64,000 nt of DNA. Source: an uncultured Myxococcales bacterium (GTDB taxonomy: Bacteria > Myxococcota_A > UBA9042). The position numbers were made by a program, and so were the translations under genes. Shown here piece after piece: positions 2,634 to 64,000 of the stretch (the first letter of the stretch is position 1; every line of letters begins with the position of its first letter). The notes beneath the pieces were generated by a model. It searched no databases. It was not told the origin of the DNA and was given only the letters and a program-made list of their open reading frames with translations. The stretch spans positions 11,665 through 75,664 of the forward strand of contig CAITYF010000197.1 in NCBI GenBank assembly GCA_903896545.1. The letters run 5' to 3'.

Positions 2634-2740
2634 CGGTCACATACGCGGACCGAATTCCGACGTCAGAGCCACCGACACCGGAGGAGGGAGCTCGCGTCCG
2701 AGATGCAGCACGCCTGCCCCTGCACGGCAGTCATGATCGG

Positions 2741-4207: not shown

Positions 4208-4233
4208 GCGCGCACGCACGCGGGGGAACGCGG

Positions 4234-5993: not shown

Positions 5994-6005
5994 CGGAGAC
6001 ACACG

Positions 6006-8989: not shown

Positions 8990-9003
8990 GGTCGCGCTCC
9001 TCC

Positions 9004-26480: not shown

Positions 26481-26620
26481 ACATGCCTGCCAACACTGGA
26501 GATCAAATGCTGAACACTTGGTGGGCATGTTTAGGCTGCTAGCAGGGGCGCCAAGCTCGCGTCCGTGCAGGTCGACTCGCGGCGACACAAGATATTGGGC
26601 TCCGAGTCAATGCAGGGATG
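26477..26620 (-). repeat. 144-bp MITE-like repeat, copy 1 (inverted relative to copies 2 and 3)
   Basis: 92-96% identical to 47826-47969 and 60959-61102. It contains a 9-bp stem AAACATGCC/GGCATGTTT, and its terminal CTAAACATGCC supplies the stop codon of the upstream gene. Confidence 0.8.
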
Positions 26621-47813: not shown

Positions 47814-47825
47814 GGGCAAGCTACA

Positions 47826-47969
47826 CATCCCTGCATTGACTCGGAGCCAAATATCTTGTGTCGCCGCGAGTCGGCCCGCAGGGACGCGAGCTTGGCGACC
47901 CACCTAGCAGCCCAAACATGCCCACCCAGCGTTCAGCATTTGATCTCCAGTCCTGGCAGGCATGTTTAG
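47826..47969 (+). repeat. 144-bp MITE-like repeat, copy 2
   Basis: CATCCCTGCATTGACTCGGAGCC...GGCAGGCATGTTTAG. Its terminal TTTAG supplies the TAA stop (minus strand) of the gene at 47966-48970. Confidence 0.8.
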
Positions 47970-48970
47970 CGGGTCGCGTGCGCGCGGGCCACACGTCCCA
48001 GCAAATCATCGATGTCGTGCTGCAACGTCGCATCCGCGGACGTTCGCACAGCAGCCAGGCGTGCCGGCAGGTCGGGCAGATCCGCCAGCTGCAGCGACTG
48101 CACCACGCGCTCGCGCGACTCGCCCTGCGTTTTGGCCAGAAGCGGCAGCAGGGCGTCCGTCACGCGCTGACGGACGCGCAGGCCGTCCTCCGCGCGCACG
48201 CGACCCAGCGCCTGCCACGACCAACTCGACGCAATCGCGCCCATGGCCTGAACGATCGTCCGCTGTGTCGCGTCATCTTTGGCTGTCGCCAGCGCAGACA
48301 CCAACAACTGCGCGGCATCCGTGCGCTTGCACACCCCCAGACCGGCGATCGCCGCCGTGTACAGCGGGTCGTCCGCGCGGAGGTGCTGCTGCAGCGCCTG
48401 CAGTTCCAGCGCGCCCCCCAGACGCCCCAAAGCTTCCGCCGTCGCACGCGCCACGGTCATTTGCCGACCCAGCGGCGTGAGCAGCTCCTGACGACCGCGC
48501 GCCTGTTGCCACAGCGTGTGCAGAACGCCGCGCGCCCGGGTGTCGCGCAACGTGCCCACAGCCTCGAGGAGACCGACCAACAGCGCGCGCTCTTCCTTCG
48601 CGCGGTTCACCGCGTCCGTCGACAAACCTTGCGGCGACCAATCCAACGCCAGCGCGCTCAACATCGGCAGCAGGCCGGCAGTACCGAGGGCGCGCAATTC
48701 GCGGCTGCAGTTCGGCTCTGGCGTACGCGCCGCCATCCAGCCGTCGGGACGACATCCCTTGGCCACCGCCACGATGTCGTACGCCGCCGGACGCGCCAGA
48801 CGATCCGCCATCACCGCATTTTGCAGCGCCGTGCGGTCCGCAGGTCCCATCTGCGCCGCCTGAATCGCCAACCCTGCGGGCTCGGCTGCCAGCGCCGGTG
48901 CTGCCGCGCTCAGCGAGCCAACCGTCAGCGCCAGGAAAATCATCTTCTGCTTCATCATCTTGTGCCTCAT
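47966..48970 (-). CDS. Hypothetical secreted alpha-helical (HEAT/ARM-like) repeat protein
   Basis: Signal peptide MIFLALTVGSLSAAAPALA, followed by Leu/Ala-rich helical repeats. Confidence 0.5.
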   Translation of the reverse strand: MRHKMMKQKMIFLALTVGSLSAAAPALAAEPAGLAIQAAQMGPADRTALQNAVMADRLARPAAYDIVAVAKGCRPDGWMAARTPEPNCSRELRALGTAGLLPMLSALALDWSPQGLSTDAVNRAKEERALLVGLLEAVGTLRDTRARGVLHTLWQQARGRQELLTPLGRQMTVARATAEALGRLGGALELQALQQHLRADDPLYTAAIAGLGVCKRTDAAQLLVSALATAKDDATQRTIVQAMGAIASSWSWQALGRVRAEDGLRVRQRVTDALLPLLAKTQGESRERVVQSLQLADLPDLPARLAAVRTSADATLQHDIDDLLGRVARAHATR

Positions 48971-49134: not shown

Positions 49135-51345
49135 TTAGTGTTTCACGAGCCACCACTGCCAGGTCGGCTGCGGCGGGCCTTCCGGGTTCGTCCCGCAGTG
49201 CACTTCGCCCTCGTTGATGTGGTAACTCTCGAAGTCGTCGATGAAAAACACCTTCATGCCCTGGCCGTCCGCGCCCAGCGCGTTCACCGGCGTACCCAAG
49301 CGATCCTTCAGGTCCTGGGCAAAGACGTCGACGCCGTTCACCTTTGGACCAAACGGGTTCGGAATTTCCATCGTGTTGCCCACGAGCAGCATGTTCGCCG
49401 TGCCGGGCTGCCACGCGATCTTGCCACCGCCGACTTCCTCGGTCAGGAACGGCATCTCAATGATCTCGGCGTCCGTCAGACCGGTCGCGTCGACAACCGT
49501 CTTGCGGATGCCATCCGCCGCCGCTTGCGCCTCTTGCGACCACTGCAGCAGATCGGAATTGTTCAGCGTCTCCGTCACCGATTTTGCCGCAGGCACCATG
49601 GTGGAATCGGTTTCGTTCTTGTACGTGTTCTTGCCGTCAAAGAGCAGCGCGGCACCGTGGCCGTCGTCCGCCAGCTTCTGCAGCATCTGCTTGGCGAGGT
49701 TGTTCGACGCGACCAGCAGCTTCCAGCCGCGGTCCGTCTTCGCCGGCGAATAGCTGAGCACTTCATCGACGTGACCGACAAGCAGCCAACTCGTATCCAC
49801 TTCCAGCGCCGGCGACTGCGGTCCCTGCGCGTTGTAGAACTGCGACGTCTCGTCCAGGATCCCCGAACCGTGGATGATCCGTCCGACCGGGAACTTGTCC
49901 TGGTTGTTGGAGTAGGCCGGCAGCAAGTCGTGATTGCCGTGGCTGTCGTAGCTCGAACCCGAGTTGGGCGACAGGTAGATGGCGATCGCGGCTTTGTCCT
50001 TGCCCAGATAGCTGGAACGCAGCCACGCGATGGGCAGCAACTTCGGCGAGCACGCGTTGTAACGGCCCCACGGGCGGGCGTTGGCGACGCGCATGCCGTG
50101 GATCTTGGTCTTGCCGTCGGCGTCCTTGCCCTGCGGAATGGAAGTCCACGCGGTCTGGTAGTAATCCTGCGTCCACGCGTCGTTCCATTTGCCGCCCGAC
50201 GAACCGTTGGCATACGTCGTGAACTTCACGTTCGCGCCGTTCGCGCCCAGTGCCGCCTTCAGGTCGGGCACAAACGGCGTGAAGTAGTTCGCCGCGCGCA
50301 CTTCATCAAACGGCGTCAGGTTGCCGTTGAGAATCCACGGCGCGACGTGCAGGAGCACAGACTTCTTGCCATCGACGAGTTCTTTGGTCGGAATCGGCTT
50401 GGCCTTGGCGTCGGTGCCCTGACCGATCCAGTAGGTGATGCGCACGTTGCCGTTCCACGAGTCGTCGCGGCGGAAGTCGCGCCCTTCGATCGCCAGCTTC
50501 ACGCCCTTGCGAAGGTCGTCGGCCGTCAGAATGCCCGCCTTGGCGTTGGTGTCCGCGCAGTCATCCGGCGCGCTGTCGGGGCAAAATGCGAACGTCGGCA
50601 CGCAGTCGTTGTTCACGCCGGCGACGATTTCCCAGCCGTTTGCGCCATTCTTCCACAGGCGCACCTTCTCCGGGTTGTCGATCGAGAGCACGCCCACGTA
50701 GCCGTCAGGCGCGTCCGGCCAAGCGGCGATTGTGATCGGCGCCAGATCGAGTTCGTCGTCTGCGCCGTTGATGCTCGTGTCCAGGACGTCTTCGATCTTG
50801 TCGCCGTCGTCGTCGTCCAAATTCGCGAGGTAGGAAGCGCCAAATTCGCTCGTCCATTCATTGCTGTGCGCCTGATCGTCGGCGTTCTTCAGGTCGGCTA
50901 CGCCGTCGCGGTTCGCGTCCACGACAAGGTCAACGATCGGCGTGGCCAAGGTGCCGTCAGTGCCGTCCGCGCCACCGTCGCCCGACGACGCGTCAGACCC
51001 CGATAGGCACTTGAGGTGCGCGTTGTACACGCAGGATGTCACCGCGCCAACTTGCATCGTGGTTGCCTGATCCGTCAGGCCCTGCACGCATTTGCTGAGG
51101 CACGTCGAGTCAGTCTGGTCGCAGGAGCCCACGCAATTGAGCCAAGTCTGGCAGCCGCCGACGCACTTCCCAATCTCGCTGGAACACGCGGTCTGCTCGC
51201 ACGCGCCGGCAAACTTGCTGTCGGCCGAGATTGTGCCGCCTGGCGTCGACGTGGTTGTGGTTCCGCAGCCCGCAAGCAAGCAAAGCGTTGCCAGTGGCAC
51301 GCCCGAGGCTGACAGGACACGCTTGAAGAACAAGTTATTTTGCAT
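49135..51345 (-). CDS. Protein-arginine deiminase (eukaryote-type PAD) homologue lipoprotein with a Cys-rich N-terminal module
   Basis: C-terminal FFIDDFESYHINEGEVHCGTNPEG matches the PAD active-site Cys block (GEVHCGTN). Acidic Ca-site-like stretches (DLVVDANRDGVADL, LDDDDGDKIEDV). Lipobox LLAGCGTT. Confidence 0.65.
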   Translation of the reverse strand: MQNNLFFKRVLSASGVPLATLCLLAGCGTTTTSTPGGTISADSKFAGACEQTACSSEIGKCVGGCQTWLNCVGSCDQTDSTCLSKCVQGLTDQATTMQVGAVTSCVYNAHLKCLSGSDASSGDGGADGTDGTLATPIVDLVVDANRDGVADLKNADDQAHSNEWTSEFGASYLANLDDDDGDKIEDVLDTSINGADDELDLAPITIAAWPDAPDGYVGVLSIDNPEKVRLWKNGANGWEIVAGVNNDCVPTFAFCPDSAPDDCADTNAKAGILTADDLRKGVKLAIEGRDFRRDDSWNGNVRITYWIGQGTDAKAKPIPTKELVDGKKSVLLHVAPWILNGNLTPFDEVRAANYFTPFVPDLKAALGANGANVKFTTYANGSSGGKWNDAWTQDYYQTAWTSIPQGKDADGKTKIHGMRVANARPWGRYNACSPKLLPIAWLRSSYLGKDKAAIAIYLSPNSGSSYDSHGNHDLLPAYSNNQDKFPVGRIIHGSGILDETSQFYNAQGPQSPALEVDTSWLLVGHVDEVLSYSPAKTDRGWKLLVASNNLAKQMLQKLADDGHGAALLFDGKNTYKNETDSTMVPAAKSVTETLNNSDLLQWSQEAQAAADGIRKTVVDATGLTDAEIIEMPFLTEEVGGGKIAWQPGTANMLLVGNTMEIPNPFGPKVNGVDVFAQDLKDRLGTPVNALGADGQGMKVFFIDDFESYHINEGEVHCGTNPEGPPQPTWQWWLVKH

Positions 51346-51496
51346 GGCAATCTCGCGGGCAAATGCGTAAACGAAGGCACAGCGCACCGCAGCAATCGCG
51401 GTGCGGCATGCACCCTAGCTGTTTTGTGACGACCGTGCAACGACGCAACGCGTCACCCGCAGAAGTTCGTGAGGGTGACGCGCGGCATCAGTGTGA

Positions 51497-54400
51497 CTAC
51501 TTGATCGTGCCGCGGATGTACGTGTAACCGGCGACGTTGGCGATTTCCTGAATGTCCAGACCCAGCGTCGTGCCCGCGGGAATGGCGGGCGACAGCGTCG
51601 ACAAGTCGATCGACGGCAGTGGAATCGCGCCCAGACCGCTGGAGATGCCGCCGACCAGATTCGGCACAAGGCCGGTGATGAGCGACACGAAGATGTCCTT
51701 GAACGGCAGCGCTTCCGAGTTGATCTTCGTCACTTCCAGCTTCAAGGCGATGCTCTTCGGGTCGAGGTTCAAAGAAATCGCCTTGGAGCCCGGATTCTTG
51801 GGATCCGCGACCGCTTCAATCTTCACCTTGGCCGTCACCAGCGCGTATGCGTACATGTCGATCGGCGTGCCGCTGAAGCTCAGCATCGCGTGGATGCCCA
51901 AGTCGCCGATCTGCAGCGTCAGCCATTCGCCGTCCGCGCACGTGTTCAGGATCGGCGGCAGCATGAAATCGGTCTCAACCGACAGATCTTTCACGCCATA
52001 CGTCGACATGTCGATATTGCCCAGCACCGACGAGTCCAGCGCCAGCTGCAACAGGCCGCCGTTCCAGATCGCGTGCAGCAGCTGGTTGACAAAGTCATCC
52101 GCCAAGCCCACTTCCAGACCGTACTTCTCCGTCGGGTTGAACACGACCGGCTTGGCGTTCTCCGCGAGGCAGCCCGCGCGACCGATCGAACCCAACACGT
52201 CGTGCGGCACCTTCTTCTCGGCCGTCATGGACGCCATCAAACCGAACACGATGCCCTGCTTCTTCTGGAACGCGAGCGTGCCCACGTCCGACGTCAGCTT
52301 GAGGTTCGCCGGCGCGCCCTTGCCGATGAACGGCCCGAGCGGGATCGTCGTGTTGATCGCCAGCATGTTGAAGATCGTGCCGAGCTGACCGCCGATCAGC
52401 TGGTCCAATTGCGGCGCGAGCACGGTTGTCAGGAGGTTGGTCAGCGGCGCGAGGATCAGCTTCTCCAACTGGGCGAGGAAGCCCGTCACGTTGATGCCCA
52501 CGTTGTTCAGCTGTTGCACCAGCGGGCCGCTCGGCAGAATCGTCAGGTTCTGCAGCTGAATCGTGGTGTTCTTCGCCGAGCTGACCAGCTTGCCGGTCGC
52601 TGGGTCTTTGGACAGGTAGATGTCCAGGCCAATGTCGATCTCATCCGCGGCGATGGTCGTGACGGTCTTGAACGGCACGAAGCCGAGCAGGTTGATGTCC
52701 AGGTTCAAGTCCGCCGACAGGCCGTAGATTTTCGCCGAGACGTAGATGCCGCCGTCCAACACTTCCATGTCGATAAGCGGGTAGCCGCCGTTCTTCAGCG
52801 GATCGCCGAGCTTCACGTTGCCAATCGACGGCGTGACGGTCGTGCCCAGCACATTGATGACGCCCAAGCTCACGCCGCCGCCGAGTAGGCTGTTCAGGTC
52901 GAGTTTGCCCAACACAATCTCGAGCACCGACACGATGTCCTTCGGGGTCGTGTGGTTGTGCGTGCCGTTGTCCAGGATGTTCTGCGAGAGCCAAATGCCG
53001 ATCGCGTCGTTGATTTCACTGTCCTTGGGCGTGTTGAAGTCCGAGAGGAACCACTGGGTCGAGTAGTAGTACGTCTGCACGCCCTGCGAGATGTTGTCCC
53101 ACTGGTCGTGCGCTTCCCACTCGATCGGGTTCATGCCCCACACGCTCGGAATATCGAAGGTGAACGAGCCGTCGGCCGCGATCGTGACTTCCTGACCGCC
53201 GATGGTGAACGACTTGACCGCGCTGGTGACGTCGATGACGGTGCCCTTCACGTGCACGATCGGGTCGCCGTTGAGCGTTGCGCCGCGCGCGGGCTCGGTG
53301 ATGAGGACGAGCGGACCGACGGAATCGCACGTCAGCGTCGTTTCAGCCGACAAACTCGGGTAGTCAACGCTCGTGCCCACGAAGTGGTAGTGGCCGTCGG
53401 TGTTGAACGAGTAGCTCTTGCCGCCCGCGTTGACCGTCACGCCTTCGGGCGGATCGACCGCGCAGGGCTGCTGCAACGGCATTTCCGGCACGTCGTTGCC
53501 GAACTTGTCCTTACCGAGGCCGAACATCTTGATCGTGTCGTCGATCTTGTAGAACGGCATATTCGGCTTGGGCCACAGCGTCATCGAGACGGGCTTGCCG
53601 GGCGTTACCGTCACCGTGCCGGGCGTGGCGTTTTCCTTCGTGACGTTCGCCATCATGCACTGGATGTCGTACTTGCCCGAAACCGTCGAGGTCAGGCCGC
53701 CGCTGGTGGACGTCAGCGCCTTCGGATACATCAAGGTCGCGCCGGAAGCGTCGACCGTGTTGCCCCACTGGTCGACTGCGGCGCAGGTCACCTGCGTGCT
53801 GCCCGCGCCGGCTTCAAACGTGGCCGGGGTCACCGTCGCCGTCGTCTTGTAGGCAGCGCCAGCCGTAATGACGAGCGGCGCGCCGTCGCTCACCGCGTCG
53901 GGCGACGATTCAAGGGCGCACTTCACGGTCACCGTGCCGGCGAGCCAGCCTGTGACGGAGAGGTCGGTGATCGTGCCTGCGTTTGGCGGGTCGAGCGCGA
54001 GCGACCAAGCGATGCCGTCCTTGCCGACGTCATTGCCGTACGCGTCCTTGCCGGAGCAAGCCGCGCTGGCGACGTCACCGGCGTGAATGGTCTGCGGGTT
54101 GATCGTCGTCGTGAGCGTTGCGGCGGGGCCCGCGCTGACGGACAGGATCGCCGACTTGTCCTTGGGGTTCGCCGCGCGTTCGGGCAGCGTGCACTGCACC
54201 TGGTACGAGCCGACCAACGTTCCCGTCAGGTTCGCCTTGTCGATCGTCACACCTTTGGTCGGCGTCACCGTGTAGGTCGGCTGCGGAATCTTCACTTCCC
54301 CCGGCTGACCGATGCACTGAACCGTCACGACCGTACCCGCGATCACGTGGCCTTCCGACAGTTGCGTGTCGACCGACTCGATGGAAGCGAGCTGACCCGG

Positions 54401-54550
54401 CTGCAGACCCACTGTGAGGCCGAGGTCCTCCGGAGTCGCGTTGGCCTGCGAATCGCCGCAGCCCGTCGTCAGCACGCCGAGCGTTGCGAGGGTCAAAGTG
54501 GCCAGAGCGAAGGGGCGAGTAGCAGCGAACAAGCGTGAGGCGAGGTACAT
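51497..54550 (-). CDS. Large (~1000 aa) surface lipoprotein with N-terminal Ig-like/BIG repeats and a large C-terminal domain of unknown function
   Basis: Lipobox LTTGCGDS. Repeated ~90-aa Thr/Val-rich beta segments (TVTVKC..., TQVTCAAVD...). No catalytic motif recognised. Confidence 0.6.
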   Translation of the reverse strand: MYLASRLFAATRPFALATLTLATLGVLTTGCGDSQANATPEDLGLTVGLQPGQLASIESVDTQLSEGHVIAGTVVTVQCIGQPGEVKIPQPTYTVTPTKGVTIDKANLTGTLVGSYQVQCTLPERAANPKDKSAILSVSAGPAATLTTTINPQTIHAGDVASAACSGKDAYGNDVGKDGIAWSLALDPPNAGTITDLSVTGWLAGTVTVKCALESSPDAVSDGAPLVITAGAAYKTTATVTPATFEAGAGSTQVTCAAVDQWGNTVDASGATLMYPKALTSTSGGLTSTVSGKYDIQCMMANVTKENATPGTVTVTPGKPVSMTLWPKPNMPFYKIDDTIKMFGLGKDKFGNDVPEMPLQQPCAVDPPEGVTVNAGGKSYSFNTDGHYHFVGTSVDYPSLSAETTLTCDSVGPLVLITEPARGATLNGDPIVHVKGTVIDVTSAVKSFTIGGQEVTIAADGSFTFDIPSVWGMNPIEWEAHDQWDNISQGVQTYYYSTQWFLSDFNTPKDSEINDAIGIWLSQNILDNGTHNHTTPKDIVSVLEIVLGKLDLNSLLGGGVSLGVINVLGTTVTPSIGNVKLGDPLKNGGYPLIDMEVLDGGIYVSAKIYGLSADLNLDINLLGFVPFKTVTTIAADEIDIGLDIYLSKDPATGKLVSSAKNTTIQLQNLTILPSGPLVQQLNNVGINVTGFLAQLEKLILAPLTNLLTTVLAPQLDQLIGGQLGTIFNMLAINTTIPLGPFIGKGAPANLKLTSDVGTLAFQKKQGIVFGLMASMTAEKKVPHDVLGSIGRAGCLAENAKPVVFNPTEKYGLEVGLADDFVNQLLHAIWNGGLLQLALDSSVLGNIDMSTYGVKDLSVETDFMLPPILNTCADGEWLTLQIGDLGIHAMLSFSGTPIDMYAYALVTAKVKIEAVADPKNPGSKAISLNLDPKSIALKLEVTKINSEALPFKDIFVSLITGLVPNLVGGISSGLGAIPLPSIDLSTLSPAIPAGTTLGLDIQEIANVAGYTYIRGTIK

Positions 54551-54808
54551 GTTGCACTCCTTGCGCGGTGGCGCGAGCCCGGCTCGTTCAGCCTTCGGCC
54601 CATGGAAACCCACGTAGAACCGAGAAATTCCACGGTCAGCCGACCGGGCGCGCGAATCTTACCAGATTCGTCAAGCCAGTGCGAGTTTGATGTTCGTGTC
54701 ACGTTCTTGTGGCGCAAAATGCCCGTGCCGCTTGCGTTTATGGATTGGCGACCGGCACTTCTGTCGCTACACTCCGTGCTCCCGTCCCGGTGGACGCCGC
54801 GAAACGCC

Positions 54809-57613
54809 ATGCACGTCATCGAAACCCGTGTCTATCAAGGTCCTAATCTTTACGCGCACTTCCCGGTGATGCGGTGGACGGTCCGGCTTGGCCCGTTGGA
54901 GGACAAGCCGTCTGCCGAGATTCCGGGGTTCGTCGATGCCCTTTTGGAACACGTGCCGACGCTCTGGGAGCACACGTGCAGTCCCGGTGTGCGCGGCGGT
55001 TTTGTGCAGCGTTTGAATCAGGAAGGCGGCACGTGGATGGGGCACGTGCTCGAACACGTCGCGATCGAACTGCAGAACTTGGCCGGCGCGCGCGTGAGCT
55101 TTGGCAAGACGCGTGGCTCCGGGCACCACGGTGAGTACCACGTCGTTTTTGAGTATGAAGAAGCGCGTGTGGCGCAGGCAGCGGCGGAGCTCGCCATGAA
55201 GCTGCTGCACCATCTCGTGCCCGCGGAACTGGTTCCCGACGCTGAGCGCGATCCCGATTTTCACTTCCAGACAGAGTTGGACGATCTCATTCGTCAGGCA
55301 CAGCGCCGCGCTCTGGGGCCATCCACGGGCAGCCTGGTGCGCGCCGCGGAAGCGCGTGGCATCCCGTGGATTCGCTTGAACGACCACTCGCTGGTGCAGT
55401 TTGGCCACGGCAAGTTGCAAAAGCGCATCCAAGCGACGGTGACGAGCGAAACCCGGCACATCGCTGTGGAGATCGCCAGCGACAAGCAGGAAACCAACAA
55501 GATCCTCGCCGACCTGGGACTCCCGGTGCCGCGTCAGGAGATGGTCTATTCGGTAGAGGAAGCGGTCAAAGCGGCGCGTTCGATTCGCTATCCGGTGGTG
55601 GTCAAGCCGTTGAACGCGAACCACGGCCGCGGCGTGTCGATCAACCTGACTTCACCCGAACAGGTGGCGACGGCGTTTGAGAAGGCGCAAGAACACAGCC
55701 GCGCCGTGTTGGTCGAGACATTTGTCGCAGGCTTTGATCATAGAATGCTGGTGATCAACGGAGAATTGGTCGCAGTGGCCAAGCGGGTTCCCGGCCACGT
55801 GGTCGGCGACGGCTCGCACACGATCGCGGAGCTGGTCGACATCGTGAACAGCGATCCGCGGCGCGGCATCGGCCACGAAAAAGTGCTGACCCGGCTCGCG
55901 TTTGACCACCAAGCCGAGAGGCTCATGGAGCAGGCGGGCGTGACGCGCGAGTCGGTCTTGCCTGCGGGTGAAATCCTGTATTTGCGGTCGACCGGTAACC
56001 TGTCGACGGGCGGCACGGCGATCGATCTGACCGATCAAGTGCACCCGGACAACGCGGAAATGGCGGTTCGCGTGGCCGGCGCAATCGGTCTGGACGTGAT
56101 CGGTGTAGACTTTTTGACTCAGGACATGACGCGCAGCTATCGCGAAGTCGGCGGCGCGATCTGTGAGGTCAACGCTGCGCCTGGCTTCCGCATGCACGTG
56201 GCGCCGAGCGAAGGCAAACCGCGCGACGTGGCCGGCAAAGTGATCGACATGCTGTTCCCGCCTGGGACGCCGTCGCGCATTCCGATCGCCGCGATTACCG
56301 GCACGAACGGCAAGACGACGACGAGCCGCATGCTCGCGCACATCTTCAAGTTGCGCAGTGAAATCGTGGGTTTGACGACGACGGACGGCGTGTACATCGA
56401 CGGCCAGCGCACCGTGGAAGGCGACATGACGGGGCCGATGAGCGCGCAGATGGTGCTGCGTGATCCGAAGGTCACGGTCGCCGTGCTGGAAACGGCGCGC
56501 GGCGGCATGTTGCGGTCCGGCTTGGGCTACCGCTGGCCGGACGTGGCGTGCTGTCTGAACGTGAGCGCGGACCATCTGGGACTCGGCGGCGTCGACACGC
56601 TCGATCAGTTGGCCGCGGTGAAGCGGATTCCGATCGAAGTGGCGCGTGAAGCCGTTGTGCTGAACGCGGACGATGAACTCTGCCTGGCCATGGCGGATCA
56701 CAGCCAAGCGAAGCACGTCTGGTACGTCACGACGAATCCGAACCACGCGCTGGTCCGCGAGCACATTCGCGCGGGCGGCAAAGCGGTGGCGCTGGAAGCG
56801 GGCGTAAACGGCCAGATGATTGCGCTTTACGATCGCGGCCAGCACCTGCCGCTGCTGTGGACGCATTTGATTCCGGCGACGCTGGAAGGCAAGGCGATCC
56901 ACAACGTGCAGAACGCGATGTTCGCCGCCGCGATGGCCTACGCGATGCACGTGAAGTTGGATGACATTCGCCACGGCTTGCGGACGTTTGACTCGACGTT
57001 CTTCCAGTCGCCCGGACGCATGAACGTCTACGACGCGCTCGGCTTCAAGGTGCTGCTGGATTACGGTCACAATCCGGCGGCGGTCAAGGCGATGTGCACG
57101 CTGGTCGACAATCTGGTGGCGGGCGGCGTGCTCGCAACGGGCGGCAAGCGCGTGTGTGTTCTGGCGGCACCCGGTGACCGACGCGATGAAGATATTTTGG
57201 AAGTCGCTCGCATCGCGGCGCATTCGTTTGACGAGATCATCTTGCGTCGCGACGACAACCCGCGCGGGCGAGGTGACCGTGAAGTGCCCGAGCTCCTGCA
57301 AAAAGGCCTCATCGCCAGCGGTTTCCCGGCGGACAAGCTGACCATCATCACGCACGAAGTGGACGCGCTGCAGGACGCGCTGGACCGCTGCAAGCCCGGC
57401 GACTTGCTGTTGGTGTTCTGTGACAAGGTGACGCGTTCGTGGAAGCAAATCATCTACCACCATCAGCAGCAGGGTGGGCGACCGCCGGTGGAGGACGAGA
57501 CGCCTCAGGCCGTGGCCCAGCAGCCGCAGGAAGATGAAACGCCGCTGAGTACGTCCGGGCTTGTGCGCGATGCGCGTGGCGTGCGGCTGGCGCGTCCTGA
57601 AGAGGCGGATTGA
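54809..57613 (+). CDS. cphA: Cyanophycin synthetase (N domain + ATP-grasp G domain + Mur-ligase-like M domain)
   Basis: N-domain MHVIETRVYQGPNLYAHFPVMRWTVRLG...; ATP-grasp region (VVVKPLNANHGRGV, RMLVINGELVAVAKRVPGHVVGDGSHTI); Mur-ligase P-loop ITGTNGKTTTSRM. 934 aa. Confidence 0.85.
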   Translation: MHVIETRVYQGPNLYAHFPVMRWTVRLGPLEDKPSAEIPGFVDALLEHVPTLWEHTCSPGVRGGFVQRLNQEGGTWMGHVLEHVAIELQNLAGARVSFGKTRGSGHHGEYHVVFEYEEARVAQAAAELAMKLLHHLVPAELVPDAERDPDFHFQTELDDLIRQAQRRALGPSTGSLVRAAEARGIPWIRLNDHSLVQFGHGKLQKRIQATVTSETRHIAVEIASDKQETNKILADLGLPVPRQEMVYSVEEAVKAARSIRYPVVVKPLNANHGRGVSINLTSPEQVATAFEKAQEHSRAVLVETFVAGFDHRMLVINGELVAVAKRVPGHVVGDGSHTIAELVDIVNSDPRRGIGHEKVLTRLAFDHQAERLMEQAGVTRESVLPAGEILYLRSTGNLSTGGTAIDLTDQVHPDNAEMAVRVAGAIGLDVIGVDFLTQDMTRSYREVGGAICEVNAAPGFRMHVAPSEGKPRDVAGKVIDMLFPPGTPSRIPIAAITGTNGKTTTSRMLAHIFKLRSEIVGLTTTDGVYIDGQRTVEGDMTGPMSAQMVLRDPKVTVAVLETARGGMLRSGLGYRWPDVACCLNVSADHLGLGGVDTLDQLAAVKRIPIEVAREAVVLNADDELCLAMADHSQAKHVWYVTTNPNHALVREHIRAGGKAVALEAGVNGQMIALYDRGQHLPLLWTHLIPATLEGKAIHNVQNAMFAAAMAYAMHVKLDDIRHGLRTFDSTFFQSPGRMNVYDALGFKVLLDYGHNPAAVKAMCTLVDNLVAGGVLATGGKRVCVLAAPGDRRDEDILEVARIAAHSFDEIILRRDDNPRGRGDREVPELLQKGLIASGFPADKLTIITHEVDALQDALDRCKPGDLLLVFCDKVTRSWKQIIYHHQQQGGRPPVEDETPQAVAQQPQEDETPLSTSGLVRDARGVRLARPEEAD

Positions 57614-59256
57614 TGAAGGCGAGCAATGCACGGCGCTTGACTGGACCTAGCTGGTGGCTGGATGCGGCGGGCGCGGCGGTGGAAGTTGCTTTTGCCGCCG
57701 ATGACGACCCGGACTGGCTCTTCGCTGATTGGTCTCGGCAGATCTTCGATATTGCTAAGCTTTTGGTTTGGCCGTCGCCGCAATTTGGTCAAACCCGCGG
57801 ATCGGGTGTCGCAACCTGGGCGTTCACCGCACCGCTCGATCAGCTTGGTACGGCAGCGGAATTGGCGGAACAAGCATGCAGTGAGGCCGCGTGGGCTTTG
57901 GTCGCCCCTGCCGAGGCGAATCCGCGCGCGATGGCCTGGATCGCGGCGGCGGAAGCCCACAATCTGCCGTGGCTTTGGGATGAAGACGCGCTGACTTTGG
58001 GCCTCGGCGCACACAGCCAGACTTGGCCGCTCGCCGAAGTGAATGAAACGCTGCCCGATTTGCACGGCCTCGCGACGATTCCGCACGTGCTGATTACGGG
58101 AACCAACGGCAAGACGACAACAGCGCGCATGATCGCGCGAATCCTGCGCCATCACGGGCTTTTTGCGGGCAACACGTCGACCGATGGGTTGATGCTCGAC
58201 GGTCAATTGGTCACACCAGGCGATTGGACGGGACCGGGCGGTGCGCGCCAAGTGCTGCGGAATACCCGCGTGCAAGCGGCGGCGCTCGAGACGGCGCGCG
58301 GTGGGCTTCTGCGGCGCGGATTGGCGTCGCACTGGGCTGACGCTGCGGTTGTGACCAACGTCAGCGATGACCATTTGGACCCGCAGGTTCCGTCTGAAGC
58401 AGCGATGGCCGACGCGAAGCTCGCGATTCGGCGGGGAATTCGTGCCGGAGGCCTGCTGATTCTGAACGCCGATTGCGCGCCCTTGGTCGCCGCCGCGCAA
58501 CGCCTGCGGTTGCCCGATGGCGCCTACGCGCTGGCGTGGTTTGGCGCATCGCGGGCGAGCGCGACCGCGCTATCGGGGGCGCTCCACGCGTGGTCGGAAG
58601 ACTCCGCACTCGTCTTGCGCGACGCGAACGGCGACCACCGCTTCGCGGAACTGGCCGCGGTGCCTTCTACTTTTGACGGACATGCGCCGCACAACGTCGC
58701 CAATGCCTTGGCGTCTGCTCTGGCAGCTCGCGCGATGGCCGTTCCGCTGCCGACCATCGCTGGCGGGCTGCGCGCATTTGGCTCGACGATCGCCGACAAT
58801 CCCGGTCGCGCCAATGTGATGCACCTGAACGGCGCGACGATCCTGATCGATTTTGCCCATAATCCCGATGGTGTGCGCCAAGTTGCCGCGCTGGTCGATG
58901 CGTGGCCATCGGTGTCGCGAACGCTGCTCGTGGGGCAGGCGGGCGATCGCACGGACGACCTGATGCACGCGTTGGTCGTCGCGTCGTTGGCGTTTCGTCC
59001 GGACCGCGTTGTGCTGAAAGACACGGATCACTACCTGCGCGGTCGGCAAAAGCACGAGATCCCCGAAGTGCTGCTGCGGTTTTACCTGCGCGAAGGGGTT
59101 CCCGCGGACGCGATGTCCATCACGCACGATGAGGCGTCGGGCATCGACGCGGCGCTGCAGGACGCGCTGCCCGGACACTTGCTGATTCTGCTGATTCACG
59201 ACGATTTTCCCGCGGCGGTCGCGCAACTGCGCGCGGCGGGGGCGGTGGAACCGTGA
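57610..59256 (+). CDS. Cyanophycin-synthetase-like stand-alone Mur-ligase (M-domain) protein lacking the ATP-grasp domain (cphA'-type)
   Basis: ITGTNGKTTTARM P-loop, and RGGLLRRGLASHWADAAVVTNVSDDHL paralogous to the cphA ARGGMLRSGLGYRWPDVACCLNVSADHL. No ATP-grasp motifs. The start overlaps the cphA stop. Confidence 0.7.
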   Translation: MMKASNARRLTGPSWWLDAAGAAVEVAFAADDDPDWLFADWSRQIFDIAKLLVWPSPQFGQTRGSGVATWAFTAPLDQLGTAAELAEQACSEAAWALVAPAEANPRAMAWIAAAEAHNLPWLWDEDALTLGLGAHSQTWPLAEVNETLPDLHGLATIPHVLITGTNGKTTTARMIARILRHHGLFAGNTSTDGLMLDGQLVTPGDWTGPGGARQVLRNTRVQAAALETARGGLLRRGLASHWADAAVVTNVSDDHLDPQVPSEAAMADAKLAIRRGIRAGGLLILNADCAPLVAAAQRLRLPDGAYALAWFGASRASATALSGALHAWSEDSALVLRDANGDHRFAELAAVPSTFDGHAPHNVANALASALAARAMAVPLPTIAGGLRAFGSTIADNPGRANVMHLNGATILIDFAHNPDGVRQVAALVDAWPSVSRTLLVGQAGDRTDDLMHALVVASLAFRPDRVVLKDTDHYLRGRQKHEIPEVLLRFYLREGVPADAMSITHDEASGIDAALQDALPGHLLILLIHDDFPAAVAQLRAAGAVEP

Positions 59257-60101
59257 ACGTGGATGCGTTGCCGGAGCTCGAAGCGCGCTGGTCCGCCGCA
59301 TTCGCTGCGGGGCAGGAAGCGGTGGGCGAACCCGGCGTCCTGGCCTGCACGTACGTGCTGCGCGGGGCCATGCGGACGGCCGATCGCCGCTGGCGTCAGG
59401 GCGTCCGAACGCCCGTTTTGCCCGTTTCCATTGACGATTTTGCCGTCAGGACGCTCGCCGAACGCCACGTCTATCGGGTTGAATCGCAGGTCGCCGAGTG
59501 CTTGGTTGCCTGGGCGCACCGCAACCGTCGCCTATTTCTACGCTTTGACATCCCGACGCCTGCTGAGCTTTTGGTCTACCAAGCGCGCGGCGAGCGCATC
59601 GTCTCGCTGTTGCCCGAAGGCGTGCCGACGGGACTCGAAGCGAGCAACTTCGAGTTTGCGCTGCACGATCTCTGTCATGCCGAGAAGTTCTTTGCGCCCG
59701 AACACTTCCACGGTCAGGTCGGCTTCTTCGCCACGGTCGAGTCAATGCTGCGCGGTGCCGCGTGGGCCCAACTGACGCGCGATTTTGACGCTGCTTGGCC
59801 AGCCGAAGTGGACCACGTCGTGGCCGACATGAACGGCTCACCGCTCTTTCTTTTTGCCGCGTTGCGGCGCAAGGTCATGAACGCCGCGTTGCGGGTTGGT
59901 CAGGATCAGTTCGCAGCACGGGCGGGGTTGTGTGAGGTATTGAACCTCCCGCCGAACGTGGCGCGGTCCGGAGAACAGTTTTCCGTGCATCCCGACGTCG
60001 ATCCGGTTGAAATCCGCTACCACGCCGACATGCTGCAAGGGCATTTTGAGGCACTTGGGCAGCAGATCATGGCCACGCAGCTCGGCGCGGAACCGCAGTG
60101 A
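59253..60101 (+). CDS. Hypothetical protein co-transcribed with the cyanophycin synthetase genes
   Basis: The GTG start overlaps the previous stop (GTGA). Possible metal site ALHDLCHAEKFFAPEHFH. No confident family. Confidence 0.5.
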   Translation: MNVDALPELEARWSAAFAAGQEAVGEPGVLACTYVLRGAMRTADRRWRQGVRTPVLPVSIDDFAVRTLAERHVYRVESQVAECLVAWAHRNRRLFLRFDIPTPAELLVYQARGERIVSLLPEGVPTGLEASNFEFALHDLCHAEKFFAPEHFHGQVGFFATVESMLRGAAWAQLTRDFDAAWPAEVDHVVADMNGSPLFLFAALRRKVMNAALRVGQDQFAARAGLCEVLNLPPNVARSGEQFSVHPDVDPVEIRYHADMLQGHFEALGQQIMATQLGAEPQ

Positions 60102-60111
60102 AGGAGTTTTC

Positions 60112-60957
60112 ATGACTACACCCCGCAAAATCGTCGTAACCGGCGCTTCGACAGGCTTTGGGCGCTGCATCGCAGAAGCCGCGCTCGCCCAGGGGTGGTC
60201 CGTGCTGGGCACCGTTCGCAAGGACACCGACGCCGCCGACTTGCGCGCCAAGGGCATTGCCGTCGCGCAGTTTGACCTCGCGGTGCCCGAATCGATCGGC
60301 CCTGGCTGCGCGCAAATTCTCGCGTGGTGCGAGGGCAATCTGGACGCGCTGGTCAACAACGCCGGCTCGACTTGGCCCGGTCCCATCGAGCTCGTGACGA
60401 TGGCTGATCTGCGTGTGCAGTTTGAAGTGAACACTTTTGGCCACATCGACGTGACGCAGCGCCTGCTTCCGGCGATCCGCGCAGGGCATGGCCATGTGCT
60501 CTTCATCTCGTCGGACTCGACCACGTTGACGCCGCCGATCGTCGGCACCTACGCGGCGTCCAAGCGCGCCATCGAGGCGCTCGCCGAGTCGCTGGCTCAG
60601 GAAACGGCGGGGCAGGGCATTCACGTGTCGATCGTCGCGCCCGGACCGTATCAGACCGCGATTTGGGGGACCTCGATTCCCCGCGGCGAGGCGTACCTGG
60701 AAACCGCCGATCCGCGGCTGCAGCTTTACCGCACGCTGGCCGAACAGTTGGGCAGAGCGTCCACCAACCGCCCGCTGGGCGATCCGATGGACCTCGCGCA
60801 GGTCGTGCTGAAGCAGTTGAACGACCCGAATCCACCGCTGCGCACGGTGGCGCCGTTTCAGTCGCGGCTGGTCAGCTGGGTGCGTGCGCTCATCGGCCCG
60901 CGGCGCTTCCACAAGCTGCTGCGTTTTGTCATCGCCAAGCAAGGTGCAGCGAGCTAG
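60112..60957 (+). CDS. SDR family oxidoreductase
   Basis: AAGGAG RBS 6 nt upstream. VVTGASTGFGRCIA, NNAG, YAASKRAIE (YxxxK). Confidence 0.8.
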   Translation: MTTPRKIVVTGASTGFGRCIAEAALAQGWSVLGTVRKDTDAADLRAKGIAVAQFDLAVPESIGPGCAQILAWCEGNLDALVNNAGSTWPGPIELVTMADLRVQFEVNTFGHIDVTQRLLPAIRAGHGHVLFISSDSTTLTPPIVGTYAASKRAIEALAESLAQETAGQGIHVSIVAPGPYQTAIWGTSIPRGEAYLETADPRLQLYRTLAEQLGRASTNRPLGDPMDLAQVVLKQLNDPNPPLRTVAPFQSRLVSWVRALIGPRRFHKLLRFVIAKQGAAS

Positions 60958-60958
60958 A

Positions 60959-61102
60959 CATCCCTGCGTTGACTCGGAGCCAAATATCTTGTGTCGCCGC
61001 GAGTCGGCCCGCAGGGACGCGAGCTTGGCGACCCAGCTAGCAGCCTAAACATGCCCACCCGGCGTCCAGCATTTGATCTCCAGTCTTGGCAGGCATGTTT
61101 AG
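60959..61102 (+). repeat. 144-bp MITE-like repeat, copy 3
   Basis: Starts 2 nt after the SDR TAG stop. Its terminal TTTAG provides the TAA stop (minus strand) of 61099-61572. Confidence 0.8.
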
Positions 61103-61572
61103 TTCGCCTCTGCACGGCAGCGGTTGCGCAAGTCGCTGTTGTTGATCGACTCGCAGGCGCTTTTGTTGTGCCCCGCGACGCCGCGGCAGTAGTTGCGCTT
61201 GTCGCTGTCGCCGATCGATTCGCACGGGCTCTTGTCGTGACGCGAAACGGCGCGGCAGTGGTTGCGCGCGTCGCTGTCCGAGATCGACTCGCAGTTGCCT
61301 GAGCTGCTGGAGCCGCCCGCGACGCCGCGGCACTGGTTGCGCAGGTTGCTGTCGCCAATCGACTCACAGTGTGACTTCTCGCCGCTCGCCTCGGCACGAC
61401 AGTAGTTGCGTTTGTCGCTGTTGCTGATCGATTCGCAAGGGCTCTTGTCGTGCTTGGCCACAGCGCGGCAATGGTTGCGCGCGTCGCTGTCAGAGATCGA
61501 CTCGCAATTGCTGGCGTTCGCCGCCGCGTTCACGGTCCACAAAGTCATCGCCACCACAGTCCACTTCCACAT
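61099..61572 (-). CDS. Secreted protein made of about eight tandem ~16-aa CESI(S/G)DSDxRNxCR repeats
   Basis: Signal peptide MWKWTVVAMTLWTVNAAANA, then NCESISDSDARNHCRAV / SPCESISNSDKRNYCRAE / SHCESIGDSNLRNQCRGV and so on, with two Cys per repeat. Confidence 0.6.
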   Translation of the reverse strand: MWKWTVVAMTLWTVNAAANASNCESISDSDARNHCRAVAKHDKSPCESISNSDKRNYCRAEASGEKSHCESIGDSNLRNQCRGVAGGSSSSGNCESISDSDARNHCRAVSRHDKSPCESIGDSDKRNYCRGVAGHNKSACESINNSDLRNRCRAEAN

Positions 61573-61609
61573 GCTGCCCTCCATTGCCCCGTTTCCGGCC
61601 CGGCGCACG

Positions 61610-62293
61610 TTACGCCACGGCGCGCACGACTTCCAGCCACGCTTGCAGCCACAGTCTGCCTGCACCGCAGCCATCATTCCAGCCCATTTCCGGATGAAAT
61701 TGGCTCGCGAGGATGGGCCGCCGACGGTGCGCGATCGCCTCCACCGGAGTCACGGCGCTGTGTCCCAAGGTGACAAACGCGCTTGGCGTCGCTGCGACTT
61801 GTTCGACGTGGCTCTCAAAGCACCGCCCCCCGGATTCTGGCCAACGCAGCAGCGCGCGCCGGGCGGCGTCGGGCAGCCACGAGGGCAACGCGCTTACGTC
61901 CAGCGCCACGGGCAGCGGACCGCGCACCTTACGCAGTCCGTCGTAACTCGCGCCGAGATCTTCGCCAAACGTCGTTTCCAGCTTGCCGCCCCAAGCAAGC
62001 GCCAGCGCCTGCATGCCACCGCAAACGCCCAGCACCGGACCTGGAAACACTTCAACGAGCGCCCGCAACCATGGGAGAAACGCGCGGTCGTAGGCGGCAA
62101 ACGGTGTGCCTTGGGGACCGAGCACCAGCGCGGTCGTCCGGGCGAGCAAGGCGGGATCGCGGCGAATTTCCGCGAAATGCACAAGCGTCACTTCAGCTTT
62201 GGGCAACAGAATCTCAAGCGCTTCGGCAATGCGCTCGCAACCACCCCGTTCGCCGGCTTGCAAGTTCAGATTGCAGATCAAGATCTTGACCAT
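61610..62293 (-). CDS. Class I glutamine amidotransferase-like protein
   Basis: GVCGGMQAL (nucleophile Cys elbow) and SQFHPE (His-Glu of the triad). Confidence 0.7.
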   Translation of the reverse strand: MVKILICNLNLQAGERGGCERIAEALEILLPKAEVTLVHFAEIRRDPALLARTTALVLGPQGTPFAAYDRAFLPWLRALVEVFPGPVLGVCGGMQALALAWGGKLETTFGEDLGASYDGLRKVRGPLPVALDVSALPSWLPDAARRALLRWPESGGRCFESHVEQVAATPSAFVTLGHSAVTPVEAIAHRRRPILASQFHPEMGWNDGCGAGRLWLQAWLEVVRAVA

Positions 62294-62296: not shown

Positions 62297-63232
62297 TCAG
62301 CCATCTCTGCGCTTGGGAATGGGCTCGCCCGGCAGCAGCCCGTCGGGTAGGCAGACACCGGGCGCATTCCACCAAGATTCAAGCAGATGTGCAATCGTTC
62401 CGGGCTGTTCATGGTGCAGGTTGTGTCCAGCGCCCATCAACACGCCCGCGTGGAGCCGCGGCACCACGGCGTGACGCGTTGGCAGATCCGGCGGCAGCCA
62501 TTCACTGTGTTCCGCGTAGACAGAAAGCACCGGCATCGGCAGGTTCGCCCACAAGCGCAGCGCTTCATCGAGGCGAAATGGCCGCGCCGAGGGCGTGCGG
62601 TGCAGCGGATCGTGCCGCCACGCCAGACCGCCGGGAACGCGCTCGGTGTTGGTCTGCGCCAGTCGCAGCGCCATGTCCGCCGGCAGCCGATGATTGGCTT
62701 TTTGCAGCCGCGCAGCAGCGTCCTCCAGCGTTGCCATCGCGCGCCGGTTCGCCTTCCGGTCGTTCGCATCGCCGACCAATCCGGGCTGCAGTTGTGCGTC
62801 CAGCCAGGCCTCCAGCCGCGAAGGCCACGCCTCGACCGGGTTCTCCAGCGGGCCCATGCCGTCCAGCAGGGCGAGGCTTTGGACGCGCCCCGGCCGGACT
62901 GCCAGGAGCGCAGTCGTGATCATGCCGCCCATCGAGTGGCCCACGACGTGATCGGGCGCGTAATGGCACAGGAGTCCGTCCAAATCGTGCCAAAAATCGG
63001 CGAAGTGGTAGAAGCCGCCGGAACCGACCCACGCCGATTCGCCGTGCCCGCGCGCGTCGGGCGCAATCACGTGCCAGCGGTCACACACGCGCTCGGCGAT
63101 TGCCGCAAAGCTTTTGCCGTGGTCCAAAAAACCGTGGTGAAAAAGGACCTTGGGCAGCGCAGGATCGCCCCAACGGTGGACAGCCAGCGGCAAACCGCGT
63201 ACGGAGTGAAAATCAGTCTGGATGGGCGACAC
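62297..63232 (-). CDS. Alpha/beta-hydrolase fold protein
   Basis: LFHHGFLDHGKSF, the nucleophile elbow GHSMGG, and a C-terminal His. The start is uncertain: a GTG at 63232 is preferred because the upstream ATG would overlap the divergent Dam gene. Confidence 0.65.
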   Translation of the reverse strand: MSPIQTDFHSVRGLPLAVHRWGDPALPKVLFHHGFLDHGKSFAAIAERVCDRWHVIAPDARGHGESAWVGSGGFYHFADFWHDLDGLLCHYAPDHVVGHSMGGMITTALLAVRPGRVQSLALLDGMGPLENPVEAWPSRLEAWLDAQLQPGLVGDANDRKANRRAMATLEDAAARLQKANHRLPADMALRLAQTNTERVPGGLAWRHDPLHRTPSARPFRLDEALRLWANLPMPVLSVYAEHSEWLPPDLPTRHAVVPRLHAGVLMGAGHNLHHEQPGTIAHLLESWWNAPGVCLPDGLLPGEPIPKRRDG

Positions 63233-63349
63233 AGTGCTCCTTCGCGGCTGCCGCTTGCGAGCATGGGCGGCGCGAGGCGGAAGTGTCAAATGCCCTTGCA
63301 CCGGCGCGTGGAACGGCCTACGGTGCAGCGTTCTCGACAGCAGGCAACC

Positions 63350-64000
63350 GATGACGCAACTCCCGTTCCCGGACATGATGACGCCCCACGGCTTGATGCC
63401 GAGTGATCCGGTCTTGACCGCGCCGAGTCGGCAAGTGCTGAAATGGATTGGTAATAAGCACAAAGTCGCGGCCGCTATCGCCGCGTCCTTTCCGACCGAT
63501 TTCCGCCGCTACTACGAGCCGTTCATCGGTTCGGCCGCCGTTCTGGGCACGCTGGCACCGCGCGATGCAGTGGCCTCGGACGTGCTCGCGCCGCTCGTCG
63601 CGATTTGGCAGCGTGTGCAAGCCGATCCGCAGGCTGTGTACGCCGCGTATGAAGCGCGCTTTCAAGCGTTCACGACGCAAGACCGCAAGGTCGTTTACCG
63701 CGCCATTTTGGACCGCTACAACGCGACGGGCGACCCGGACGATCTGCTTTTTGTCGCGCGGACGTGTTACGGCGGCGTGATTCGTTTTGACCGCAAAGGC
63801 ACGATGAACACGCCCTGCGGTGTGCACGCAGCGCTTCCGCTCAAGAAGTTCGCGGAGGCTCTGGCCCAATGGCAGCCGAGGCTGGCGGGAACGCGCTTTG
63901 TTGTCGGCGATTTTGAGACGCAGATCGACGACGCGGGACCGGGAGACCTGGTCTACTGCGACCCGCCGTATCAGGACTGCGGCAAGAATCTCTACGGCGC
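63350..64000 (+). CDS. Dam-type (D12 class) DNA N6-adenine methyltransferase; 3' end beyond the window
   Basis: VLKWIGNKHKV (the PxLKWAGGK-like motif I) and DPPY (motif IV). Not in the ORF track because it has no in-window stop. Confidence 0.7.

Follow-up and report, generated by a model that had tools for sequence, protein, structure and literature searches.

If a bacterium already possesses a complete cyanophycin synthetase gene, what might be contributed by a second gene, derived from part of the same enzyme and lying immediately downstream of it? This question is raised by a locus embedded in a stretch of 64,000 nucleotides from an uncultured Myxococcales bacterium (assembly GCA_903896545.1, contig CAITYF010000197.1, positions 11,665 to 75,664; hereafter, the window), where cphA (gene 1) is followed on the same strand by a gene coding for a Mur-ligase-like protein (gene 2) and by a third gene (gene 3), all three open reading frames being found where a first-pass annotation, made by a model from the sequence alone, had placed them (Table 1). 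At present, the synthesis of cyanophycin is attributed to a single enzyme, either CphA1 or CphA2 with its dipeptide substrate. The data reported here reveal that cphA and gene 2 constitute a conserved two-gene module, widespread across several phyla and apparently uncharacterised, and they suggest that an auxiliary enzyme, so far uncharacterised, may take part in making the storage polymer.

The Two cphA-Derived Genes

The sequence of gene 1 is that of an ordinary and complete CphA1. The protein scores 1149 bits against the equivalog model TIGR02068 (cut-off 850; model positions 2-858 of 862) and, in agreement with the three domains that it was said to have, its Pfam matches include PF18921 (the Cyanophycin_syn N domain), ATP-grasp families, PF08245 (Mur_ligase_M), and PF02875 (Mur_ligase_C). 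The domains extend approximately over amino acids (aa) 1-163 (N), 164-490 (ATP-grasp, G), and 491-880 (Mur-ligase-type, M), and are followed by an acidic/Gln-rich C-terminal tail of 54 aa. The M domain carries the expected residues (P-loop K502, E561, D588/H589, R737, and H754), so that the family model on the one hand, and the domains and catalytic residues on the other, both assign the protein to CphA1. The HxxEH motif, which represents the primer-generating peptidase site in SuCphA1 (PMC9262961), is present as HVLEH (aa 79-83), and the enzyme is probably primer-independent. Since this cphA itself includes an intact M domain, the system is not a "split" one, as had been suggested, and gene 2 must be regarded as an addition to it.

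Concerning gene 2, sequence comparison places it in the Mur ligase superfamily as a paralogue of the CphA M domain, distinct from MurE, MurF, and FolC. Its product matches PF08245 (73.2 bits, cut-off 24) and PF02875 (38.4 bits, cut-off 28.4), both above the cut-off, and no ATP-grasp domain was found by the Pfam search; TIGR02068 is matched with 298 bits (cut-off 850) over model positions 477-856 only, that is, along the M part, which leaves the protein outside CphA1 proper. This is what the first-pass annotation had read from the sequence, adding that an alignment as a bona fide MurE, MurF, or FolC would contradict it. The corresponding NCBIfam models, however, all remain far below their cut-offs (MurE TIGR01085 73.8/257 bits, MurF 52.4/289, MurC 48.3/335, MurD 46.9/212, FolC 40.8/163); MurE-type models give 74-91 bits, and NCBIfam contains no model specific for proteins of this type. 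In the PDB, CphA1 structures are the closest by sequence (E 2.5e-53), followed by MurE (about 1e-8), and the M domain shares 36% identity with that of the adjacent cphA.

The M-domain residues known to be required in CphA1 are all retained in gene 2. In addition to a P-loop of sequence GTNGKTT, residues K167, T168, T190, E226, D253/H254, R399, and H416 (numbered from the ATG start codon) correspond to K499, T500, T522, E558, D585/H586, R731, and H748 of SuCphA1/TeCphA1, where K499, T500, T522, and E558 are among the M-domain residues involved in ATP and Mg binding and in activity (PMC9427784) and D585/H586 among those reported for the M domain of CphA1 (PMC9262961). The whole set is invariant in an alignment of 26 family members diverging to 39% identity, except for T168 and T190, which are conserved in at least 90% of them; moreover, conservation of at least 90-95% was observed for the equivalents of K499, E558, D585/H586, R731, and H748 among 37 proteins of the gene 2 family, 11 other proteins with an M domain only, and 68 CphA1 sequences. 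Since the catalytic residues are intact, a ligase function of gene 2 appears plausible.

The region preceding the M domain, which had been described merely as a short N-terminal region, is by its sequence a reduced CphA N domain devoid of the HxxEH peptidase helix (hereafter, N'). When the profile of this region was compared by hhalign with that of the CphA N terminus, the two were matched with a probability of 96.2% (E 2.5e-9), residues 2-138 of N' aligning to CphA 1-206 with the HxxEH helix segment deleted and then leading directly into M. The hidden Markov model (HMM) of N' also recognizes the N domains of several CphA1 proteins, and the motifs RRLTGP...PGAxxEV, TAPxDxL, and LPxLxD...SLGLG are conserved across the family. 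The AlphaFold (AF2) model of gene 2 (predicted local distance difference test, pLDDT, 93.8) superposes on the whole of CphA1 (7wae_A) with a query-normalised template modelling (TM) score of 0.84, compared with 0.56 on MurE, and N' and M are therefore predicted to be placed as N and M are in CphA1. Gene 2 thus descends from a three-domain CphA that lost the ATP-grasp core and the metallopeptidase helix of the N domain and kept the side-chain-adding (arginine-adding) half. Without the G domain and the HxxEH site, its product would be unable to extend the Asp backbone or to cut primers.

Phylogeny, Selection, and Spread of the Gene Pair

The family to which gene 2 belongs is uncurated and was defined in the present analysis. 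It is referred to here as deltaG, or N'-M, and comprises proteins in which a reduced CphA N domain is joined directly to a complete M domain, which carry the signature xYLRGR, fall into one clade, and are encoded adjacent to a full-length cphA. Gene 2 scores 183 bits with the N' HMM, carries the signature as DHYLRGR, falls into the deltaG clade, and has cphA directly upstream. This clade was obtained with a bootstrap value of 88% in a neighbour-joining tree of 121 M domains (100 replicates), which, being a distance tree only, is weak in its deeper nodes. A second clade, supported by 87%, embeds M-only proteins of Actinobacteria and Chloroflexi, and the two clades join with 66%. The cphA genes carrying a deltaG partner form a group of their own (100%), as do the actinobacterial cphA genes (100%), the two being joined with 57%. 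The clade formed by the CphA1 M domains does not include that of gene 2. The possibility that gene 2 is a recent duplicate of the adjoining cphA was considered and rejected, the M domain grouping with those of the other deltaG proteins and not with that of its partner. On the basis of this grouping, gene 2 appears to be an old partner that diversified alongside one branch of cphA.

The ratios of nonsynonymous to synonymous substitution rates (dN/dS) were calculated versus two syntenic relatives, L091 and L005, and are rough, since dS is near or beyond saturation: they are 0.06-0.08 for cphA (protein identity 88-91%), 0.21-0.27 for gene 2 (66-72%), and 0.08-0.14 for gene 3. All three genes are maintained by selection, gene 2 being under a looser constraint than cphA.

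As for the distribution of the family, the best 120 database matches of gene 2 are 350-630 aa long, mostly 520-600 (a few being fragments from short contigs), contain Mur-ligase domains only, and are named "Mur ligase family protein", "UDP-N-acetylmuramyl tripeptide synthase", or "cyanophycin synthetase". Among reference loci, an N'-M gene follows a full-length cphA in metagenome-assembled genomes (MAGs) of Steroidobacteraceae, Gammaproteobacteria, and Lysobacterales, in Luteimonas lutimaris, in Plesiocystis pacifica SIR-1, and, after a 2-kb gap, in a Planctomycetaceae MAG; the two genes are convergent in a Thermoanaerobaculia MAG. All seven loci harbor cphB, and three of them iadA. On long metagenome contigs, three arrangements were observed: iadA-cphB-cphA-deltaG, cphB-cphA divergent from deltaG, and cphA-deltaG-MFS. 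On the whole, the degradation genes cphB and iadA accompany many of these pairs.

When metagenomes were scanned with patterns that are specific to the M-only lineage, 80 loci were obtained. In the 47 N'-type loci, cphA lies directly upstream in 27, is convergent in 2, and is lacking in 1, the remaining 17 loci being cut by contig ends; the corresponding figures for the 32 loci of other M-only type are 14 convergent, 1 lacking, and 17 cut. Hence, cphA is adjacent in 43 of the 45 determinable loci (29/30 N'-type and 14/15 other M-only). The distance between the cphA stop and the deltaG start, measured in 29 loci, has a median of 8 nt; it does not exceed 30 nt in 22 of them, and the genes overlap in 11, by a single nucleotide in 6. 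A 1-nt overlap is also found in the relatives L005 and L091. Thus, the tight coupling of gene 2 to a complete cphA, which the first-pass annotation had pointed out in the window, is the rule, and the same pairing is conserved in Gammaproteobacteria, Myxococcota, Planctomycetota, Acidobacteriota, and probably Gemmatimonadota, with sister forms in Actinobacteria and Chloroflexi.

The latter forms (L022, L023, L025, L027, L039, L051, L052, L067, L076, L077, and L078) deserve a separate mention. The N-terminal extension of these proteins, about 160-190 aa long, is not matched by the N' profile, and cphA occurs in the same locus in 8 of the 11, at a distance of 0.3-7.5 kb and on the opposite strand in 7 of these 8.

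The Possible Role of the Second Gene

We propose, with a probability of roughly 0.55, that gene 2 codes for a side-chain ligase that stands on its own and acts together with CphA on the polymer. According to this idea, the protein would be an active ATP-dependent ligase whose N'-M cleft might bind nascent or finished poly-Asp/cyanophycin; an amino acid would then be attached in trans to free beta-carboxyl groups of Asp, either to fill the positions missed by the M domain of CphA itself or to add a different amino acid. The two proteins would probably act in a complex, coupled translation providing them in matched amounts. In CphA1, the substrate of the M reaction has the N domain on one side and the M core on the other (PMC9427784), and the N'-M arrangement retained in the gene 2 model resembles the one forming the polymer-binding cleft in that enzyme.

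Different observations speak against this proposal. Firstly, cphA already possesses an intact M domain, so that the need for a second one is left unexplained, and the activity, the substrate, the complex, and what the ligase would attach to what are inferred by us. Secondly, the gene 2 protein evolves about four times faster than cphA. Thirdly, about one third of the M-only genes are convergent to cphA and not co-transcribed with it, and two loci with ample flanks (L135 and L151) have no cphA nearby. Lastly, in Tetrasphaera MAGs, a "shorter cphA copy" located beside the long one with cphB was reported to be expressed, at a lower level than the long copy (PMC10687191); this short copy probably belongs to the Actinobacteria/Chloroflexi M-only clade, sister to that of gene 2.

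Gene 2 might instead code for a non-catalytic subunit, i.e., a scaffold, chaperone, or regulator docking on CphA through the M core and N', or binding the polymer, and in this way tuning chain length, granule formation, or oligomer state. The matched amounts suggested by the tight translational coupling and the faster evolution of gene 2 with respect to cphA would both be in agreement with such a role; the M core of CphA1 does make inter-subunit contacts with the G cores (PMC9427784), and CphA2 demonstrates that a CphA domain can become purely structural (PMC10273328). However, all the ATP, Mg, and catalytic residues are invariant or nearly so across a family diverging to about 40% identity, which is not expected of a pseudoenzyme, and the M domain of gene 2 is complete, whereas the inactive one of CphA2 is truncated. 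On this basis, we consider a non-catalytic role improbable.

Alternatively, gene 2 might be an active ligase with a substrate other than the polymer, for instance an enzyme that joins free amino acids into beta-Asp-Arg or a related isopeptide, by which CphA would be fed or primed, or one serving another pathway. This would represent the mirror image of CphA2, which polymerises ready-made beta-Asp-Arg, and might account for the loss of the polymer-cleaving site from N', for the difference from CphA1 in the loop equivalent to DNPR of MurE (see below), and for the two loci in which cphA is not close by. Nevertheless, the architecture that forms the polymer cleft is retained, and no gene of the CphA2 type occurs in these clusters; moreover, a role in cyanophycin itself is favored by the proximity to cphA, which is nearly universal, and by that to cphB. 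The retained polymer-binding architecture makes this explanation an unlikely one, too.

Returning to a side-chain ligase acting on the polymer, a further question concerns the amino acid that it might add. No alignment column is conserved at 85% in deltaG and at 80% in CphA1 with different residues, and differences between the two groups appear only when residue classes are compared at 75%. The loop preceding the invariant RGR has the form DxxLRGR in CphA1, with D or E in 65 of 68 sequences, and aligns with DNPR of the MurE-like outgroup, while deltaG and the actinobacterial clade have xYLRGR, with one extra residue and the acidic position not conserved. Similarly, GQAGDR in deltaG replaces G(G/A)PGDR of CphA1. 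The MurE counterparts of both loops presumably line the pocket that receives the amino acid to be added, and the specificity may therefore have changed. In addition, the position corresponding to E607 of SuCphA1 is occupied by Arg, Lys, or His in 34 of 37 deltaG sequences; yet E607 contacts the polymer bound at the N-domain peptidase site (PMC9262961), and its replacement may only reflect the loss of that site from gene 2. The variant cyanophycin, or different amino-acid specificity, that had been suggested for this locus is possible, the lineage-specific change in the DNPR-equivalent loop being its sole support.

One might go further and speculate that N'-M proteins represent a third kind of cyanophycin synthetase component with a specificity of its own, adding an amino acid other than Arg to Asp or ligating where the M domain of CphA cannot reach (e.g., at internal bare Asp residues), the DNPR-equivalent and GxxGDR loops acting as the specificity switch. 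We regard this extension as tentative and, on balance, doubtful; if it were correct, the bacteria harboring cphA-deltaG would make a chemically different, or more fully decorated, polymer than CphA1 alone. Even in its simpler form, the proposal that gene 2 is a side-chain ligase would imply that two proteins take part in producing or completing the polymer in many bacteria, which would bear on natural polymer compositions, on the poor performance of some cphA genes cloned alone, and on the engineering of cyanophycin for nitrogen recovery and materials.

The Third Gene

Gene 3 was described as starting with a GTG that overlaps the stop of gene 2 (GTGA) and as having no recognisable family. Both statements hold, no match being obtained with Pfam, NCBIfam, or the sequences in the PDB, including a PDB sequence profile; nor do the longer members of the family contain a Pfam domain. 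Nonetheless, homologues, whose absence was to count against the gene, are plentiful, forming 864 clusters when grouped at 50% identity (E 0.001 or better), the named matches being Polyangiaceae, Polyangia, and Minicystis. The AF2 model is highly confident (pLDDT 96.4), and its search with Foldseek against the PDB only yielded no match (best E 0.47). Eight residues are invariant (H138, D139, H142, Q155, D192, M193, N194, and G195; motif set HDxxH...DMNG), the first three falling in the segment ALHDLCH, and a putative metal site is plausible from the sequence. A confidently predicted structure without a solved counterpart in that search, shared by a family of about 860 clusters without annotation, makes gene 3 of interest in its own right.

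Its linkage to cphA is restricted to the lineage of the window, namely to L005, L091, and the P0002 contig, which share the order protein-arginine deiminase (PAD), 1020-aa protein, cphA, deltaG, gene 3, class-I glutamine amidotransferase (GATase), and hydrolase. Neither the 80 metagenome loci nor the 9 genome or long-contig loci of other lineages contain it, and homologues sharing 44-50% identity adjoin an alcohol dehydrogenase gene, TetR/MFS genes, or an RDD-SpoIIM-DUF4129-MoxR cluster. The idea of an obligatorily co-translated partner is at variance with this distribution; because of its absence from these loci, gene 3 is not part of the conserved module. It is a real gene under purifying selection and represents a separate and lineage-specific neighbour. 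A single system composed of cphA, gene 2, and gene 3, in which gene 3 is an obligate metal enzyme further modifying the polymer, is very unlikely: the GTGA overlap kept in L091 and the P0002 contig, the purifying selection, the invariant His and Asp residues, and the storage-granule context hinted at by one homologue (see below) would be in its favor, but L005 has a 27-nt gap in place of the overlap, the gene is missing from the metagenome, genome, and long-contig loci mentioned above and its homologues lie beside unrelated genes, and a linkage seen only within one syntenic lineage is indistinguishable from inherited gene order.

The homologue in question (49% identity; L003/L004, positions 8681-9840) overlaps by 4 nt the stop of a PHA_gran_rgn gene (PF09650), which hints that the gene 3 family might be associated with storage granules more generally.

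Organization of the Locus and Its Neighborhood

The locus is organized as an operon embedding cphA, the N'-M paralogue, gene 3, and then a gene coding for a short-chain dehydrogenase/reductase (SDR), whose features are listed in Table 1.

Table 1. Position of the genes, gene regions, and junction of the cphA operon in the window.
Feature	Position	Strand	Description
cphA (gene 1)	54809-57613	+	934 aa; complete cyanophycin synthetase 1 (by sequence)
cphA/gene 2 junction	57599-57615	+	GAAGAGG at 57599-57605; cphA TGA at 57611-57613; gene 2 ATG at 57613-57615
Gene 2 (N'-M, deltaG)	57613-59256	+	547 aa from the ATG at 57613
Gene 2, N' region	57613-58074	+	aa 1-154; reduced CphA N domain together with the first strand and helix of the G core
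Gene 2, M domain	58075-59256	+	aa 155-547; Mur-ligase core and lid; xYLRGR signature
Gene 3	59253-60101	+	282 aa; GTG start; conserved protein without assigned family
SDR gene (fourth gene)	60112-60957	+	Short-chain dehydrogenase/reductase; PF00106, 124 bits

The start of gene 2 requires a comment. The open reading frame list gave a TTG at 57610 and hence a protein of 548 aa, its start overlapping the stop of cphA (TTGATGA). The overlap itself was confirmed, the initiator ATG having one base in common with the cphA stop (TGATG, 57611-57615) and being preceded, 7 nt upstream, by the Shine-Dalgarno-like GAAGAGG. However, the homologues of gene 2 begin with M-R/Q/K at the position of this ATG, and a 99%-identical protein, P0001, is 547 aa long, so that the ATG, rather than the TTG, is the likely start codon.

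The ATG of the SDR gene lies 10 nt after the gene 3 stop and is preceded by an AAGGAG motif 5 nt upstream. None of the syntenic relatives (L005, L091, and the P0002 contig) contains this gene, with which the operon probably ends in the genome of the window only. A scan of positions 54400-61300 revealed no promoter-like sites, and terminator-like sites occurred there at chance level, with no bearing on the ends of the operon. Within the 64-kb window, which was the part of the genome searched, no match to a cyanophycinase or an isoaspartyl dipeptidase was found.

Upstream of cphA and divergent from it, two genes on the minus strand code for a 750-aa protein of the PAD family (49135-51387; PF03068, 206 bits) with a lipoprotein-like N terminus (LLAGC) and, next to it, for a 1038-aa secreted-looking protein with a Glucodextran_B domain (51497-54613). 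Their order is kept in L005, L091, and the P0002 contig. The occurrence of an arginine-modifying enzyme beside an operon for an arginine-containing polymer is curious, the linkage being observed only within this lineage.

Downstream of the operon, a minus-strand gene (61099-61677) codes for a 192-aa Cys-rich protein in which the unit CESIxDSDxRNxCRA is repeated about eight times; its N terminus is signal-like, and it has no match in Pfam. In comparison with the syntenic relatives, this gene and the SDR gene are inserted between gene 3 and the gene for a class-I GATase/Peptidase_C26-like protein (61610-62293, minus strand), which is followed by an alpha/beta hydrolase gene (62297-63463, minus strand). 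In L005 and L091, the GATase and hydrolase genes come directly after gene 3 and are convergent to it. The proximity of a Mur-type ligase and a GATase recalls MurT/GatD, but here the genes are not co-oriented and their pairing is lineage-specific.

Finally, a dispersed repeat of about 155 bp was found at 47818-47970 and 60957-61110 on the plus strand and at 26569-26608 on the minus strand. The two plus-strand copies are about 95% identical and bracket a 13-kb block extending from a HEAT-repeat gene to the SDR gene and including the cphA operon, while the third, on the other strand, has diverged. The repeat contains an inverted repeat (GACTCG...CGAGTC) and has no match in Rfam.

Comparison with Known Systems

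In the full-text literature, where subscription journals are thinly covered and an earlier mention is thus possible, we came across no report of a cyanophycin protein of the M-only or N'-M type. The name CphA3 is that of a beta-lactamase. What is new here concerns the identity of N', the retained catalytic set, the old deltaG clade, and the near-constant adjacency to cphA. As reported above, a shorter cphA copy was mentioned in passing for Tetrasphaera, with no analysis of its domains or function; the clade to which it presumably belongs has no detectable match to N' and is usually convergent to cphA.

Among the Mur ligases, MurE, MurC/D/F, FolC, and the pseudomurein ligases have in common with gene 2 the families PF08245 and PF02875, the P-loop, the DH motif, the lid Arg and His, and the fold. 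Unlike them, gene 2 lacks a UDP-binding N-terminal domain, has a CphA-type N', and is found in the context of cyanophycin rather than of the cell wall.

Another parallel is represented by the tandem cphA/cphA' genes of Betaproteobacteria (e.g., Nitrosomonas europaea and Acidovorax), where two adjacent cphA-derived genes are likewise found on one strand; such loci were observed in L021, L026, L030, L034, L035, L037, L045, and L056, as well as in L061. In that case, however, both copies keep N and G, the first having a shortened M, and, unlike gene 2, neither lacks the ATP-grasp domain. L061 is a Polyangiaceae MAG in which (positions 845-5997) a shortened-M cphA precedes a full cphA, as in Betaproteobacteria, and both types of two-gene cyanophycin module therefore occur in Myxococcota.

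A last comparison is that with the two known synthetases. CphA1, to which gene 1 belongs and for which the structures from Synechocystis UTEX2470 (7LG5) and Trichodesmium (7WAE) are available for comparison, has in common with gene 2 the M domain with all its catalytic residues and an N domain predicted to lie in the same relative position; gene 2 differs in lacking the ATP-grasp G domain and the HxxEH site. CphA2, in which the G domain is active, the N domain inactive, and the M domain truncated and inactive (PMC10273328), is, like gene 2, a reduced CphA paralogue with one catalytic activity left, that of gene 2 being deduced from its sequence. The reduction, however, went in opposite directions: CphA2 keeps G, whereas gene 2 lost it and keeps a complete M with its lid, and is thus not a CphA2 but is best viewed as its mirror image. 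Moreover, CphA2 is cyanobacterial and acts alone on dipeptides, whereas the family of gene 2 is found beside a full cphA in many non-cyanobacterial phyla.

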